Source of the DNA: Elusimicrobiota bacterium
GTDB taxonomy: Bacteria; Elusimicrobiota; Elusimicrobia; UBA1565; JACRDR01
Direction of reading: 5' to 3'
Length of the DNA stretch: 64,000 nt
Assembly (NCBI GenBank): GCA_041694815.1
Contig: JBGFSC010000025.1
Span: forward strand, 1-64,000
Part shown: piece by piece, positions 6,001 to 15,000 of the stretch
Layout: every line of letters starts with the position of its first letter
How positions within the stretch are numbered: the stretch's first letter is position 1
Program-made: the position numbers

Positions 6001-9000
6001 GGCTCATCTCGTCGGGGCTCTTGCGCCTGGGGACCAGCTGCAGTGGCGGCGCGTCGAGCTCCGACACCCGACGCTCGTATTTCGTTTCCGTGGGGCCCGC
6101 TGGCCCAAACACCCGCTCGACCCCGTTTAAAAATATCCAGCGCTTGATCGCCGGGTCCCAAACCGCCGCGTGCGCGTCGAGCTGCCGGGATAAGACCCCA
6201 CCGACGTAGTAGTCCATCACTGGGCGCTCCATGCGCCCCTCCTTCGGCAGGAAGACCCGCACCGTGATGAACTCCCCGCGCGAGCTCGTCAGCGTCACGT
6301 TGTTGAACAGGTGCCACTCCCATTCGGGGTGGATGCGCTCATGCCACAGCAGTTGCGCGCGACTATAGCAGTAGGGCAGCACCGTTTCCTGGGCGATGAA
6401 GCTCGCCGCGGTCACGAGGGCCGCCATGTAGAGCACCGGGCGCAGGAAGGCGCGGGTCTCGAAGCCCGCCGCCTGCACCGCCGCCCATTCGCCGCTGGAG
6501 AGCAGGCTTGTGACGGCGAACAGGGTCGCCAGCAACGAGGCCATGGGGACCACCCGCACCGTCCAGTACGGAACGTCCAGCCACAGGAAGTTGAAGATGA
6601 CCCAGATGGGGGCGGGGCTGCGCACCAGCTTGGGCATCTTGTCGAAGAGGTCGCCAAGGAAAATGAGCAGCGCGAACATGCCCAGCCCGAAGAGGAAGGG
6701 CTTAAGAAAGCGCAGCGCCATGTAGCGGTGGAATATCTTCATGTACGGAGCTTGCGCGTCCACAGCCAAAACCCGGCCGCCAGGCCCGCGAGGTTCGGCA
6801 GCCAGGGAGAAAATGGGGATAAGGCCAATTGCCTACGCCCGAGCCCGATGCCGACGGCGATGAGGCCGTAGTAGATGAAGAGCACGAGAAGGCTTAAGGC
6901 GAACCCCGTCGCCCGCGCCCTGCGCTCCAGGCGGAGCCCCAACGGGCAGCCCAGCCAGAAGAGCACGAAGGGGCTCAGCGCCCCCGCCGTGCGCAGGGCC
7001 GCCTCCGTCGTGTACTCCTTGCGGTGGTCGAGCTCGAGCGACGGGTCGGCCAGGCGCCGGCGCAGCCCCATCGTATTCATCTCCTGCAGGTCGAGCCGCC
7101 GCTCGGGGCCCGCCGGGGCGGCGAAGGGCAGGAACAGGCGGTAGCGCTCGAAGGAAGCGGAGACAAACTGCTCGGGCTTCTCGGCAGGCATCTGCAGCGA
7201 ACCCCGGTATAGCTCGAGCGTCATGCCCACGCCGGGTTTGAGCAACACCAAGCCCTCCGGCGCGTCTACCCGCAAACGCCGATTGGCTCCCGCCTGCTTG
7301 ACCAGGTATACCCCCTGGAGCTTTCCGGTTTTTTTCTCGACGCCCTGGGCGTAAAGCTCCCATTCCCCCAGGCGGACGAAGGTGCGCGCCTCCAGGTCCA
7401 TGGAAGATACCTGCCGCAGGGCGAGCTCGTAGGATTTCTTGAAGGAGTGATAGCCCTCGGGGCTCGCCTTATGGTTGATGTAGAGCAGCAGGCCGCAAAG
7501 GGCCAGCGCCAAGAAAAGATAGGGCCCGAGTATGTCACGGAACGAGAAGCCGGATGCCCGCAAGGCCATGATCTCCCCGTTCTCGGAAAGTTGGCCCAAT
7601 ACCAAAAGCAGCGCCACCAAAAAGGCCATCGGCACCGCCAGGCTGAGGAAGGATGGCAGCAAGCGGATGAAGCAGAGCCCGATCCAGGCGGGCGAGATGC
7701 CCTTGAGCACCGCCAGGTTGAAGAGGCGCAGAAAATGGTTCATCAGCAACACCGCGATGCACACGGCCAGACCGAGAAAAAAGGTCGGCAAATACAGCCG
7801 AAACAGATAGCGGTGGAGTATGCGCATGGGACGGTATTATCCCAAATTGGGGACATGTAGTATAATAGGCGCTCTCCATGACGCCTGCGATCCTTTGGGC
7901 CGTTCTCCTTGCCGCCGGTGCCCGGGCCGAGCCGTTGTTCACCGGCCTGCCGGAGACCCTTCCCGAACGATTCGTCGAAGAAGCGGGCTTCGTGGATTTC
8001 AAGACCATGCCGGGCGAGCCGCACGCGCCGCTGGGATTTTCCTTCGCCTTCAACGGAAAACCGCTGCCTCCCGGCGACCAGGCCTCGCTCAAACGAGTAT
8101 TTTCCGAGACCTTCCACGCTGCGATCCCCAGGGGCAGCCGCATCCTCGCTTCTCGAGACGAAAACGGGAAGCTCGGGTGGGACTATCCGGCTGGGGCGCA
8201 AGCGATCCATCTCATCCGCTGGAAGGACGCCCTAGAGACCATTTTCGAGCTGCGGCTAATTCAAAAGCTCATCGATGGACGCTGGGCCTTCGGGGTCTAT
8301 ACTCCCCAGACCGGCGCCCCGGGAACGTTGCGGCTGCGCAAGGCGGAGGCCGCCGAACGCGAGACGATCCCCGTGCAGTTGAAAGAGGGCGCCCGCATCG
8401 ACGTTTCTTTCCAAAGACTCGACATTTCCTCCTGCCGCCGCTGCCATTTCATGACCCATTCGGCCAGCCGCGCCTACCCGTCCGAATCCGCCGCCGGACC
8501 CTGCCAAGTCGTCGCCGACAATCCCGACTCCGCCGAATGGATCCGCCGCTACCTGCAGCGGCATGGCGAGTCCCCCGTAAGCGACTAAAAAACGGCAACC
8601 TTTACGCAAAGTGGTGCCAGGGATTGACTTTCGCCTAGGCGAAAGTCAATCCCTGGCACCAGAAAACGCGGGCATTGACAGCGTTATAGGCCCCTGTTAC
8701 ACTCCCGAACGCTCGCGCACGCTCGTACGCACGTGCGCGAACGACGCAGGGACGTCCGTACGGTCGTTCCCTTACGCCGAGGTGTCTGACAGCGCCGCCG
8801 CGAGGCGGCTTCTTGCGAACGCAACCGCTTGGCGAGCTCGACCGTTCGACGTCTCCGCTGGCTGGGCCTGTGCCTGTTTCTATGCGCGCCCGCGCGCGAA
8901 CGGGCGCTGGCCCAATTCTCGACCCCCTACGACCCGGATTTCCCGACCCCCGAGGAGCGCCCACGGCCCGAGGCGAAACCCGCCTTGCCCGTCTACGACG

Positions 9001-12000: not shown

Positions 12001-15000
12001 CCCGTTCGATCAACATCAGCCAGCACCGCAAGTTCAACTTCCTCCTCTACGGCAACGCCGATCCCAACAACGTCGACACGACCGGCAACCGCGTCTTCTT
12101 CCTGCGGGTCGGCTCCGACGCGAATTTCTTCGAGGTACGCATCCCCATCGACTTCGTCGGCTGGCGGCGCTTCACCATTGACCAGATCGACACCACCGGA
12201 GGCCAGATCGCAACGGGCTGGACGATCGGGGACCACGCCACGCCACGTACCGTCGTCTTCTCCACCGGGGCGCCGAACCTCCAGCAGGTGGGCTCTCTCA
12301 TCGCCGGCCTCTACACCGGCGCCGGGGTTCCCACCAAGGGCGCGGTGTTTTTGAATGAGATCTACCTCGCCGACCCCATCACCCGCATCGGCACGGCGCA
12401 GAAGATACAGCTGGACTTCGATGTGCCCGGCTGGATGAGCTTCGGAGGCAAATACCGCTCCGTCGACCGCAACTACATGACGCCGACCACCGTCATCTCC
12501 AACCAGGACAACCGGCAGGATACCGCCTACCTCAATTTCGTGCGGCTGCCCTTCTTCCCGATGAATTTCACCGTCGCCCGGCAGATCATCCAGACGCCCA
12601 ACGTCGCGCAGACGGGCGATCTCTCCAACCTGGTCAACCTGCTCCAGTCGGGCAAGGTGACCACCTGGAACGGCACGGCCAACGGGGCCTTCGCCTACGG
12701 CGCCTACCCCCGCTTGAGCGTCGGCTACGTACGCGCCAGGACCGAATACGACCTGCTCACGCGCCTCGACGACCGCAACACCTACAACAGCGCGCTCAGC
12801 TACGCCGTGCCTCTCAACAACCGCTTCGTGCCCAAGACGCTCGATACCAATTTCAGCTGGAGCAAGTACTCCGTCTCCTTCGAGAACCTGGCCGTGCGCC
12901 GCTTCCCCGGCAACTTCAACACCGACGAATTCACGACGACCTACGGCGCCCGCCTGACCTTCACCCCATGGCTGGGGTCCTCCTTCAACCCCAATTTCAG
13001 CCGCACCCAAGTGAAGGAAAGCCGAAGCGACCTGACCACGGGGCCGGAGATCATCCTGCATTACCCCAAATCGATGAACCAGACGGTCGGGTTCTCGTCC
13101 AATTTCCGCTTCCTTTCGTGGTTCAATCCTTCCGTCAATTACACGCTCAACACCATCGAGAATAACGTGCTCACGCCATCGACGTTCATCGTCACCGGCT
13201 CCACCTTCAATTTCAACGTCGGCGACATCAAGACCATCAACCGCTCCGCCACGGGCGGGGTCAGCCTGCTGCTCAACATCTCCGAGATTTGGCGGACGAC
13301 GCGACTATTTAGGTCCTTTAGCCTCGCCAACGGATATCAGCTGCAGGACGGCGACGTCTGGAACAACATCGAGAAGGAATACTCCTCGAAAACCGATTTC
13401 TGGATCCGCACCCCCTTGAGGCCCCGTAACCGCGTGGCGACCCGCGCCACGCTGACCGAACGGGATACCTTCAATTCGACCCAGCGTTGGTCCCCCTTGG
13501 AGGCCTACGACATCCCGGGCCGCCCGGCCGCCTTCAAGACCTTGTCCTTGAGCAACAATTTCCTCAAGAGCATCCAGCGCACGGAGGTGACCGGCACGCC
13601 CTCGAAGACGATCGCGACGACGCTGCCCGACGTCGTGGCCTCCCTGTCCCAGGTCGAGCGCCTGCTCTGGTCCGAGCGCTGGATGGCCAACGGCCAGATC
13701 AACCTCAAGTACGCCCGCAGGACCACCGAGGTGGTCGCCACCAGCTTCTCCGAAGACGATTCGATGGGCGCCGACATGCGCGCCATTATCCGCAGGCGCT
13801 TCGACACCGCCTTCACCTTCAACATCCGCAACTCACAGAACAAGGATTTGCGCCTCGGCCTCGTCACGCAGCAGACCCACCACGAGGACGCGACCTTACA
13901 GACCACCTTCGATATCGGGCACGTGCGCTTTACACCCAAGACGGATTACAGTTTGGACACCGCCCGGCAGGGTACGGGGGTGCAGACGCAGCACCTGACG
14001 GTGATCACGCCCAGCATCCTGGCGCGGGCCGACCTGTCGTTGCCCCGAGGGCTCATGATGCCTTTCACGAACCGCACGCTGCTGTTTACCAACCGCATCA
14101 TCTGGACCAGCACGATCGCGATGGCGCTGCGCTCCTCGCCCGTGACGCAGGCCGACAACTCGAAGCTGCTCAATTTCAACACCAGCGCCGATTACGAGAT
14201 CGCCAAGAACCTGCGCATGACGCTCAACGGGGCCTTCTCGAGGCTATGGCACCGCTTCCTCAAGGAGGAGGACTTCATCTCCTATCAGTTCGGAACCACC
14301 CTGACGTTTCAATTCTGATGCTGAAACCCCGAGCCACGCGCCCAAAGCGCGGAACGACGGTGCCAGGGATTGACTTTCGCCTAGGCGAAAGTCAATCCCT
14401 GGCACCGCCAAAAAACAATGGAACTATTTCCCCGAAAACTCGTACTTGTATCATGCGCTCCTGGCGGCGAGTCGCTCTCGATTGGATCGCCCCCCGGAGC
14501 TGCGCGGATTGCCGCATGGATCTCCCGCCTCCGCTGCAGGGGCCGCTCTGCGGCGCCTGCCTGCGCGCCCTAAGGCCTTGGGAGGGAACGATTGAAGCGA
14601 CCCCCTCGCTGCTCGGCGTCCAGGCGGCGTTCGCCTATAAGCGACCCCTGTCCCAACTCCTGTTCGCCTTCAAATACCGCGGCCGCCTCCAGGCGGGCGG
14701 GGCCTTGGCGGCCTGGATGGCCGGCACGTATCGCCAAAAGCCCGAGCTCCATGGGGCCGACTGCGTCGTGCCGGTGCCGCTGCACCCGCGCCGCCTTCGC
14801 GAACGCGGATTCAACCAGGCGGAGATACTGGCGGAGTCGGTCGCCCGGGCCGCGGGAGCCCCCCTACGGCGGGACTTGCGGCGGGTCCGCAATACCGCCC
14901 CGCAATGGCGGCTAAACCGCGTCCAGCGCGCCGAGAACTTGCGCGGCGCCTTCGAGGCCCCCGCTCCGCTGCCCTACGCACGCGCGCTGCTCGTCGACGA

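Follow-up and report, generated by a model that had tools for sequence, protein, structure and literature searches.

Does a 1,829-codon open reading frame in a genome of the phylum Elusimicrobiota encode a relative of SprA/Sov, the outer-membrane pore of Bacteroidota's type 9 secretion system (T9SS), and what kind of export pathway would such a protein serve? SprA/Sov forms a capped barrel of 36 strands that opens laterally. The window analysed here is a stretch of 64,000 nucleotides, for which an earlier note had proposed a divergent SprA/Sov together with a T9SS-type cargo system. The gene and the relevant parts of its product are:

8829..14318, + strand: gene for a putative SprA/Sov-like giant outer-membrane protein; single open reading frame of 1,829 codons, TTG start
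8829..8912, + strand: predicted signal peptide of about 28 residues, ending near A-L-A-Q, read from the translation
9330..9782, + strand: SprA-model stretch 1 (model 99-249; SprA_N region), TIGR04189 E 1.5e-15, 55.2 bits
10509..10751, + strand: SprA-model stretch 2 (model 607-687), TIGR04189 E 1.9e-14, 51.7 bits
11379..12176, + strand: SprA-model stretch 3 (model 1075-1339), TIGR04189 E 1.6e-13, 48.2 bits
14301..14315, + strand: C-terminal L-T-F-Q-F in the translation, an outer-membrane beta-signal-like end

The open reading frame was found as the earlier note had described it, and the match of its 1,829-aa product to the NCBIfam equivalog model TIGR04189 (surface_SprA) was reproduced: E 9.4e-42 and 142.5 bits, which does not reach the curated cut-off of 200 bits, with the three stretches colinear with the model. 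Pfam yields zero matches to the protein at E ≤ 1, SprA_N (PF14349) included; by our own count, PF14349 is precomputed in 9 among the 120 orthologues listed. Under TIGR04189, true SprA proteins score 2,594 and 2,213 bits and other Elusimicrobiota orthologues 101.5-178 bits, the SprA-like protein retaining 5.5-6.4% of the true-SprA score. Between Bacteroidota SprA (2,594 bits) and the SprA-like protein the scores descend step by step without a break, and this graded series is reproduced when the search is confined to longer proteins.

Profile comparisons uphold the homology. When PDB chains were searched with a profile of 32 orthologues, Flavobacterium johnsoniae SprA (6h3i) was the sole match at E 1.5e-40 (E 2e-20 with the 22 orthologues used earlier), in four significant colinear stretches, and apart from SprA nothing matched at E ≤ 0.1. 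Alignment by hhalign to 18 Bacteroidota-type SprA sequences (2,307-2,585 aa) gives a probability of 100 and E 1.9e-62 over 1,253 columns, spanning positions 123-1406 of 1,738 on the SprA-like side and 162-1884 of 2,416 on the SprA side; the last 450 residues are colinear with the SprA C-terminus but weakly so (probability 53%, E 1.3e-4). The N-terminus aligns with those of two orthologues (L013 and L014), and the terminal F is invariant in 32/32 orthologues. Such a C-terminal ending marks barrel proteins. At the level of sequence, the 1,829-aa protein is shown by these comparisons to be a shortened homologue of SprA/Sov.

The homology with SprA of F. johnsoniae (6h3i, 6h3j, 8gl6 and others) and Sov of Porphyromonas gingivalis extends over about three quarters of the SprA-like protein, which shares with them a predicted signal peptide, a barrel-type C-terminus and the co-occurrence of PorV-family barrels and tailed cargo. 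Unlike SprA/Sov, which measure about 2,300-2,500 aa, the protein has 1,829 aa; the shortfall is distributed among several gaps, with successive matched stretches offset by 16, 196, 353 and 421 residues. It also differs in scoring below the TIGR04189 cut-off, in lying outside Bacteroidota and FCB, and in belonging to a genome in which no GldKLMN or PorU was detected. The missed SprA cut-off, a length shorter by about 550 residues and the lack of detected GldL/M/N or a PorU catalytic part can all be held against a reading as translocon.

The surroundings of the gene bear both on its history and on its possible role:

5669..7827, - strand: lptF/lptG pair, divergent from the SprA-like gene (Pfam LptF_LptG E 8.6e-70 and 4.8e-66)
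8613..8660, no strand: 48-nt perfect palindromic repeat, upstream copy, between the upstream open reading frame and the promoter-like site
8675..8703, + strand: promoter-like site TTGACA-17-TACACT (10/12 matches)
14359..14406, no strand: 48-nt palindrome, downstream copy, 41 nt past the stop codon (fold -49.9 kcal/mol)
14453..15097, + strand: ComF-type phosphoribosyltransferase gene, downstream (Pfam Pribosyltran, DZR_2)

The palindrome arm occurs at about 31 places genome-wide, and the region holds two promoter-like sites against 1.1 expected, which is weak evidence. Among 50 orthologous loci, 34 carry an LptF_LptG-family gene upstream, on the other strand, and 39 a gene of the ComF-type family downstream, on the SprA-like gene's own strand; the window's ComF-type copy matches an HMM of that neighbour family at E 6.5e-58. 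Given that the synteny with lptFG and comF is kept and that 32 SprA-like sequences form one clade (support 0.96), gene order and phylogeny together show the SprA-like protein to have been inherited vertically within Elusimicrobiota.

The conserved divergent lptFG could instead be a sign that the protein acts in envelope biogenesis. On such a reading the SprA-like protein would be an envelope-biogenesis or other outer-membrane component, and tailed proteins with their barrels would make up two-gene units for export or anchoring that are complete in themselves. The comF neighbour is, however, as conserved as lptFG, which indicates a stable gene order and not necessarily a shared function, and the homology is specific to SprA.

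The genome is rich in candidate carriers and cargo. With a genome-own HMM we found 22 PorV/PorQ-family barrels, more than the 12 first claimed; all 22 match NF033709 (PorV_fam), 11 of them over its cut-off of 90, and none reaches the cut-offs of PorV (250), PorQ (220) or PorP (90.55). Four frames match PorP/SprF weakly, where three proteins had been counted before. The count of 20 proteins sharing a T9SS-type tail was reproduced, with 20 frames bearing it at the very C-terminus (genome-own HMM); TIGR04183 gives 15 matches, 11 over cut-off. That these genes nearly all lie beside a barrel gene was likewise confirmed: 18 of the 20 directly adjoin one and a further one lies at 1,658 nt, against about 0.4 adjacencies expected by chance on our own estimate. 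Cargo and barrel are often joined by overlapping stop and start codons (ATGA), as in two pairs within the window:

28141..30366, - strand: cargo gene, fn3 and T9SS-type tail (Pfam fn3, FlgD_ig at residues 659-723; tail HMM E 3.1e-24); its start overlaps the stop of the barrel gene at 30363..32246 in ATGA
30363..32246, - strand: PorV/PorQ-family barrel with C-terminal TPR extension (NF033709 87.9 bits, cut-off 90; Pfam UPF0164, Toluene_X, TPR; own barrel HMM E 2.5e-88)
33069..36170, + strand: cargo gene, Kelch propeller and Por_Secre_tail (Pfam; TIGR04183 26.5 bits, over cut-off)
36167..37075, + strand: PorV/PorQ-family barrel (NF033709 166 bits, over the cut-off of 90); its start overlaps the stop of the preceding gene in ATGA

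The cargo repertoire is typical of what cells secrete or display on their surface: a subtilase, an M4 protease and a deacetylase as well as Kelch, fn3 and beta-helix giants. Among the barrels, several are extended at the C-terminus by TPR or LysM, and no single general PorV could be picked out among the barrels of this genome. As with the cognate PorP/SprF shuttles of F. johnsoniae, which an excerpt of PMC12618676 describes as encoded beside type B cargo, cargo genes here have a carrier-barrel gene of their own beside them, and type B model CHU_C tails (contigs C2, C41 and C50) pair with PorP/SprF-matching barrels. Unlike in that system, the one-cargo-one-carrier arrangement extends to type A-like tails (Por_Secre_tail, FlgD_ig) and PorV/PorQ-type barrels. 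Tight coupling of cargo and barrel to each other, and not to the SprA-like gene, is what self-contained two-gene units would lead one to expect; on the other hand, in T9SS complexes of solved structure PorV-family barrels act as carriers and not as channels, according to passages of PMC10994853.

The distribution of the three components across the phylum also bears on this choice. The SprA-like gene is present in 115 of 121 sampled Elusimicrobiota genomes (110/116 of the high-quality ones), which bears out its status as a core gene of the phylum. PorV_fam accompanies it in 115/115 pore-bearing genomes and the tail in 110/115, the tail profile finding no match in the other five. Among the six pore-less genomes, PorV_fam is missing in four and the tail in five, with a marginal tail match in one, and a profile search of five of the six likewise found no pore. 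Pore, barrels and tails thus show joint loss in small genomes, a co-loss that represents few events, since four of the six pore-less genomes come from one genus of small genomes and are non-independent. Such joint loss speaks for a common pathway and against an unconnected envelope function; the retention of the gene in genomes of 1.0-1.7 Mb having just 1-5 tail matches fits the latter. Weighing these observations, we regard a role outside export as improbable, and consider it likely from the homology and co-occurrence that the SprA-like protein serves a type-9-like export pathway as its outer-membrane translocon.

As for the supply of energy, transport in Bacteroidota comes to a halt when the motor is missing. 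The GldL, GldM and GldN models have no match in this genome at E ≤ 1, and across 121 genomes of the phylum GldM and GldN are found in 0/121 each and GldL only as one weak sub-threshold match. A positive control missing from the earlier note was supplied: all three models score over their cut-offs in 5/5 Bacteroidota genomes (GldL 81-228, GldN 144-241, GldM 327-543 bits), and the claim that GldL/M/N go undetected here is borne out. The GldLM/PorLM motor and GldKN/PorKN ring described in excerpts of PMC12635249 and PMC10994853 accordingly find nothing matching in this genome, and only the need for release of carrier and cargo may be shared.

GldK has look-alikes, three of which lie in the window:

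1563..4973, - strand: three exported FGE-sulfatase paralogues and a kinase-like gene, GldK look-alikes only (Pfam FGE-sulfatase; GldK model 52-66 bits, model 208-406)

GldK/PorK was defined by a TIGR03525 score above 350 bits, a lipoprotein signal and a length of about 440-460 aa. By our own count, eleven paralogues score just 52-82 bits (cut-off 350), over approximately model positions 208-406 only; their signal peptides contain no lipobox cysteine, and nine have a predicted gene of 257-353 aa. As far as their sequences tell, they are generic FGE-sulfatase paralogues. The PorU sortase model NF033707 has matches confined to its tail region (955-1094), which fall on cargo tails.

Several observations would fit a pathway with an energiser of unrecognised kind, namely GldL/M/N diverged past detection, another ion-driven 5:2 motor, or a FliF/FliG-FlbD-MotAB set for some carriers. 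We hold this as a tentative but substantial possibility; it concerns the energy step only and is compatible with the translocon reading. Were GldL, GldN and GldM to retain as little of their scores as the SprA-like protein does, they would reach about 5-15, 8-15 and 18-35 bits, respectively, by our crude scaling. Divergence of this degree would mostly escape GldL/M/N searches, so absence of the motor is not proven. Against such hidden homologues, the lowest E-values that unfiltered HMMs built from the five Bacteroidota genomes reached over all six frames were 2.7 (GldL), 4.1 (GldM) and 0.49 (GldN); three gene pairs of GldL/GldM-like membrane layout reached hhalign probabilities of at most 1.3%, and probabilities peaked at 2.6% among 357 of 452 GldM-sized candidates and at 1.0% among 70 of 256 GldL candidates. 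The short exported FGE-sulfatase proteins likewise offer no GldK.

With regard to other motors, the genome holds eight MotA/ExbB-family genes, in four ExbB-ExbD and four MotA-MotB loci. One strand of contig C38 encodes a giant tailed protein, a PorV-like barrel with TPR, a FliG-like protein, a coiled-coil protein, FlbD, MotA and MotB, the Pfam domains of the run being FliG_M, FliG_C, FlbD, MotA_ExbB and MotB_plug with OmpA. It thereby resembles the flagellar rotor-stator core (FliF, FliG, FlbD, MotA, MotB). Unlike that core, it stands directly behind the barrel and the giant tailed protein, and its FliG-like protein (650 aa, FliG_M/FliG_C domains) carries a TPR tail besides two membrane helices; no FlhA was found in this genome, which therefore probably encodes no flagellum. 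The gene immediately upstream of the FliG-like one codes for a barrel in 29/30 related loci and in 19/20 wider loci; of the latter 20, 13 have a tailed gene ahead of the barrel and eight have FlbD-MotA-MotB downstream. The FliG-TPR protein occurs in 45/121 genomes, however, and in 0/37 of family f4 and 0/34 of family f11, though the pore is kept in 36/37 and 29/34 of these. Because no copy of it turned up in two large pore-keeping families, the FliF/FliG-FlbD-MotAB set cannot be a general energiser.

Taken together, the data are consistent with the following pathway. Tail-bearing proteins would cross the inner membrane by Sec and enter the SprA-like pore, where a PorV/PorQ-family carrier barrel would take over; this carrier would usually be a dedicated one, encoded beside its cargo and often translationally coupled to it. 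Because no PorU-type sortase was detected, the cargo, once at the cell surface, probably stays with its carrier. In Bacteroidota, the step that consumes energy is the freeing of the carrier-cargo complex from the translocon, as stated in an excerpt of PMC10994853; here it might proceed unaided, with the help of an energiser that escaped recognition or, in the case of some carriers, through the FliF/FliG-MotAB set. Of the proposal that a T9SS-like module works in Elusimicrobiota without the known motor, the inventory of translocon, carriers and cargo therefore stands; its working, and its working motorless, are not established, GldL and GldN as diverged as the pore being invisible to such searches.

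We found no paper on a SprA-type pore in Elusimicrobiota in a literature search. In a phylum without a described T9SS, and with the usual motor undetected, there is a relative of the T9SS translocon, accompanied, as in the T9SS of Bacteroidota, by carrier barrels and by cargo genes with C-terminal sorting domains.

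The 1,829-residue product of the SprA-like gene, P0001, and the features discussed with it are placed in the window as follows:

1563-4973, minus strand: genes for three exported FGE-sulfatase paralogues plus a kinase-like gene (APH/Kdo/RIO matches), arranged like an operon
8613-8660 and 14359-14406: two copies of a 48-nt perfect palindrome flanking the SprA-like gene, found at about 31 places genome-wide
8675-8703, plus strand: promoter-like site, weak (2 sites in the region against 1.1 expected)
8829-14318, plus strand: SprA-like gene, a single 1,829-codon open frame starting with TTG
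59229-59300, plus strand: tRNA gene, the sole Rfam family in the window at gathering score

The earlier note had described this gene as a divergent homologue of SprA/Sov, and the relationship proved to be real. The NCBIfam model TIGR04189 (surface_SprA) matches P0001 in three colinear stretches (E 9.4e-42, 142.5 bits), under its curated cut-off of 200 bits. A Pfam search of P0001 gave no match and a phmmer search of the PDB with the single sequence found nothing, while precomputed SprA_N matches occur in 9 of its 120 listed orthologues. A profile of 32 orthologues from across the phylum, 28-60% identical to P0001, recovered F. johnsoniae SprA only from the PDB, with four significant colinear stretches (E 1.5e-40). 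Aligned by hhalign to a profile of 18 SprA proteins of the Bacteroidota type, the orthologues gave a probability of 100 and an E-value of 1.9e-62 over 1,253 columns, positions 123-1406 of 1,738 corresponding to SprA-profile positions 162-1884 of 2,416; the last 450 residues align weakly and colinearly to the SprA end (hhalign probability 53%, E 1.3e-4). At its N-terminus the protein has what looks like a signal peptide, in register with the starts of its closest orthologues. Its C-terminal residues are L-T-F-Q-F, the last F being invariant among the 32 orthologues. An ESM Atlas search returned only clusters of P0001's own kind.

SprA-like proteins form a graded series. An all-against-library search gave 4,085 cluster representatives at E<=1e-3, of which 1,198 were at E<=1e-30; a separate search, limited to longer proteins, found 58, from E 1e-177 down to named Mucilaginibacter and Hymenobacter SprA. 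Scores against TIGR04189 descend from 2,594 and 2,213 bits (Bacteroidota) through 910 for a cluster that includes Ignavibacteria, 739, 515 and 315 for unnamed records, 226 for a record from Firestonebacteria, and then 195, 178, 165 and 156, to 150 for a cluster with an Aerophobetes member and 142.5 for P0001, followed by 114 and 101.5 in other Elusimicrobiota. Firestonebacteria and Aerophobetes records are thus present on this ladder between the two SprA forms, and the Firestonebacteria protein exceeds the TIGR04189 cut-off though it is recorded as hypothetical. The SprA-like proteins P0379, P0365/P0278 and P0133, from records labelled Candidatus Firestonebacteria, Candidatus Aerophobetes and Ignavibacteria, are 1,500-2,300 aa long. 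In a FastTree phylogeny of 199 sequences, from which rows shorter than 1,500 aa and one row with <60% occupancy were left out, the 32 Elusimicrobiota sequences fall within one 67-tip clade (support 0.96), which is separated from Bacteroidota SprA by many unnamed clades whose proteins have 1,500-2,500 residues. Taken together, the match below the cut-off, the profile homology and the graded series argue that P0001 is, as judged from its sequence, a true member of the SprA superfamily outside the curated equivalog. The homology itself is well supported.

Gene order around the pore gene (that is, the gene for P0001 and its orthologues) is stable. lptF/lptG lie upstream and divergent from it in 34 of 50 loci, and the same-strand downstream neighbour is a ComF-type phosphoribosyltransferase gene in 39 of 50 (14453-15097 in the window). 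The product of the upstream open reading frame at 7878-8588 has a signal peptide and no Pfam family, and the frame is not kept beside the pore gene across the 50 loci; nor is an RcpC-type lipoprotein gene among the neighbours kept downstream. The flanking palindrome is intergenic, its arms are 23 nt long (fold -49.9 kcal/mol), and it resembles a REP-type element or a transcript-end hairpin; contigs C54, C27 and C40 carry more copies just 3' of genes for barrels or cargo. Further along the window, 21792-25064 (plus strand) encodes a 1,090-aa protein that is nearly all charged coiled coil, in which E, K, R, A and Q abound; it lacks a signal peptide and belongs to no Pfam family. The strong AT skew (0.37) in bins 22001-24000 is due to this gene.

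The claim that the pore is a core gene of the phylum is borne out, with P0001 matches in 115 of 121 sampled genomes (110 of 116 high-quality genomes) and 52 of 53 genera. For genomes listed with two or three matches, the inspected rows are fragments of a single ~1,800-codon open frame. All 30 NCBI-named rows among the listed orthologues read 'hypothetical protein' and belong to Elusimicrobia or Elusimicrobiota. The pore was not found in six small genomes (G042, G013, G022, G089, G115 and G117), and a profile search of five of them found nothing; four belong to one genus, g20, in which ten other genomes carry the module, and with such relatedness the pattern reflects few events. The PorV_fam model (NF033709) matches in 117 of 121 genomes, and the four without a match (G022, G089, G115 and G117) are all pore-less. 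A profile of the 20 type IX-type C-terminal domains (tails) of this genome matches 111 of 121 genomes. Tails are missing from five of the six pore-less genomes, the sixth, G117, having a single marginal match (E 9.3e-5), and from 5 of the 115 pore-bearing ones.

In this genome, the curated models gave 13 weak matches for PorV, 4 for PorP/SprF and 15 for Por_Secre_tail, 11 of the latter over cut-off. HMMs built from the genome itself converge on 22 barrel frames (the putative carriers) and on 20 tail frames, with the tail at the very C-terminus in all. NF033709 matches all 22 barrels, 11 over cut-off; 4 also weakly match PorP/SprF, and several carry C-terminal TPR or LysM extensions. The earlier note's picture of PorV/PorP proteins adjoining some 20 tailed proteins was therefore confirmed: 18 of the 20 tail genes directly adjoin a barrel gene (<=250 nt) and another is 1,658 nt away, against about 0.4 tail-barrel neighbours expected by chance (our own estimate, given ~2,244 predicted genes). 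The sole tail gene without a barrel nearby encodes a subtilase on contig C28, and four barrels lack a tailed neighbour. In other genomes, coordinates in the PorV_fam and tail match lists give at least 19 further tail-then-barrel pairs. The pore-carrier-cargo module is well supported.

The tailed proteins, or cargo, include a subtilase, an M4 protease, a polysaccharide deacetylase, a DMFA2_C-type enzyme, Kelch and fn3 proteins and beta-helix giants, one giant cargo protein having 13,779 residues. Their tails match FlgD_ig, Por_Secre_tail or CHU_C. Those of the CHU_C kind (contigs C2, C41 and C50) are paired with barrels matching PorP/SprF, which mirrors the cognate shuttle rule of F. johnsoniae type B cargo, as described in PMC12618676. 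A search for a PorU sortase in this genome detected none, because the PorU model matches only via its own tail region. Two cargo units lie in the window, each beside a regulatory gene:

26354-28141, minus strand: sensor histidine kinase, directly after the minus-strand barrel-cargo pair with a 1-nt overlap
28141-30366 (cargo) and 30363-32246 (barrel), minus strand: barrel-cargo pair with an ATGA stop/start overlap
32275-32988, plus strand: OmpR-type response regulator, directly before the plus-strand cargo-barrel pair
33069-36170 (cargo) and 36167-37075 (barrel), plus strand: cargo-barrel pair with an ATGA stop/start overlap

Because of the adjoining kinase and regulator, both units may be under two-component control.

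According to PMC10994853, the energy-requiring step of type IX secretion is the release of the carrier-cargo complex by GldLM-driven machinery. Searched with the curated families for GldL, GldM and GldN, this genome (97.8% complete) gave no match at E<=1, and across 121 phylum genomes GldM and GldN were found in none and GldL as one 24.7-bit match. The positive control that the earlier note had lacked is now supplied: the same searches exceed the curated cut-offs for all three in five of five SprA-bearing Bacteroidota genomes. HMMs built from those five Bacteroidota genomes, run unfiltered over the six frames of this genome, gave best E-values of 2.7 (GldL), 4.1 (GldM) and 0.49 (GldN), and hhalign sweeps over 357 of 452 GldM-sized and 70 of 256 GldL-sized candidates returned nothing above 2.6% probability. 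The claim that GldL/M/N are missing thus stands as a non-detection by searches that work in the controls, which does not prove their absence. P0001 itself retains ~6% of the TIGR04189 score of true SprA, and by our own scaling from the controls a GldL or GldN as diverged as P0001 would score ~5-15 bits, so that such proteins would escape the searches.

Two sets of candidates were rejected. The 11 matches to the GldK model, FGE-sulfatase paralogues of which three are located 4-7 kb upstream of the SprA-like gene, are short, exported and without a lipobox. Three gene pairs with a GldL/GldM-like membrane layout are not related to GldL/GldM; by sequence reading they encode helical lipoprotein-like proteins, pseudopilin-like proteins, and an HtrA-type protease with a partner.

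The genome has four ExbB-ExbD and four MotA-MotB loci; FlhA was not found in it. One MotA-MotB pair belongs to seven consecutive same-strand genes outside the window (C38:58886-107359), which encode the 13,779-residue tailed protein, a PorV-like barrel with TPR, a FliF/FliG-like protein (650 residues, two membrane helices, FliG_M/FliG_C domains and TPR), a coiled-coil protein, FlbD, MotA and MotB. Of the 121 phylum genomes, 45 have the FliG-like protein. A barrel lies directly upstream of its gene in 29 of 30 loci and in 19 of 20 loci viewed more widely; among the latter, 13 have a tailed gene before the barrel and 8 have FlbD-MotA-MotB downstream within the DNA examined. In two families, f4 and f11, the FliG-like protein was found in none of 37 and none of 34 genomes, and the pore is kept in 36 of 37 and 29 of 34. 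The FliF/FliG-MotAB set is therefore an accessory to a single carrier with its giant cargo, and not the general energiser.

Three further MotA-MotB pairs lie at C15:13378-16369, C7:119-4121 and C29:14851-16984, preceded by a gene with FliG-like similarity on C15 and C7 and by a response regulator on C29. A further FliG-like gene (C41:19244-20836) is ~1.3 kb from a PorP-like barrel and its cargo.

PMC10515386, PMC7463736 and PMC8564354 describe the type IX system as specific to Bacteroidota, and PMC12398890 as specific to the FCB superphylum. Literature searches, with subscription journals outside their range, found no paper linking Elusimicrobia or Elusimicrobiota with T9SS, SprA or PorV, nothing in the titles and abstracts listed on a non-flagellar FliG/MotA cluster in Elusimicrobiota, and nothing useful on T9SS in other FCB phyla. 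Elusimicrobia and T9SS terms co-occur only in reference lists or unrelated passages, and PF14349 and TIGR04189 gave unrelated papers only.

We infer the function, fold and energy source of the module, and put forward the following reading as a tentative one that we consider rather unlikely. Type-9-like secretion would be older and wider than FCB; in Elusimicrobiota, and probably in the other candidate phyla of the ladder, a compact SprA-type pore with one dedicated carrier per cargo may work without GldLM, and in larger genomes one carrier would be wired to a flagellum-free FliF/FliG-MotAB rotary motor handling a giant tailed adhesin. Elusimicrobiota include cultured species, in which the question would be testable.

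If this reading is true, the carrier wired to FliF/FliG-MotAB would be an independent counterpart to the SprB/SprF machinery that GldLM drives in gliding. Without GldLM machinery, a pore-carrier-cargo set kept across the phylum would be a natural minimal system, which could show what the pore does alone and how a motor became attached. The module would also explain the surface placement of proteases and giant adhesins in Elusimicrobiota.
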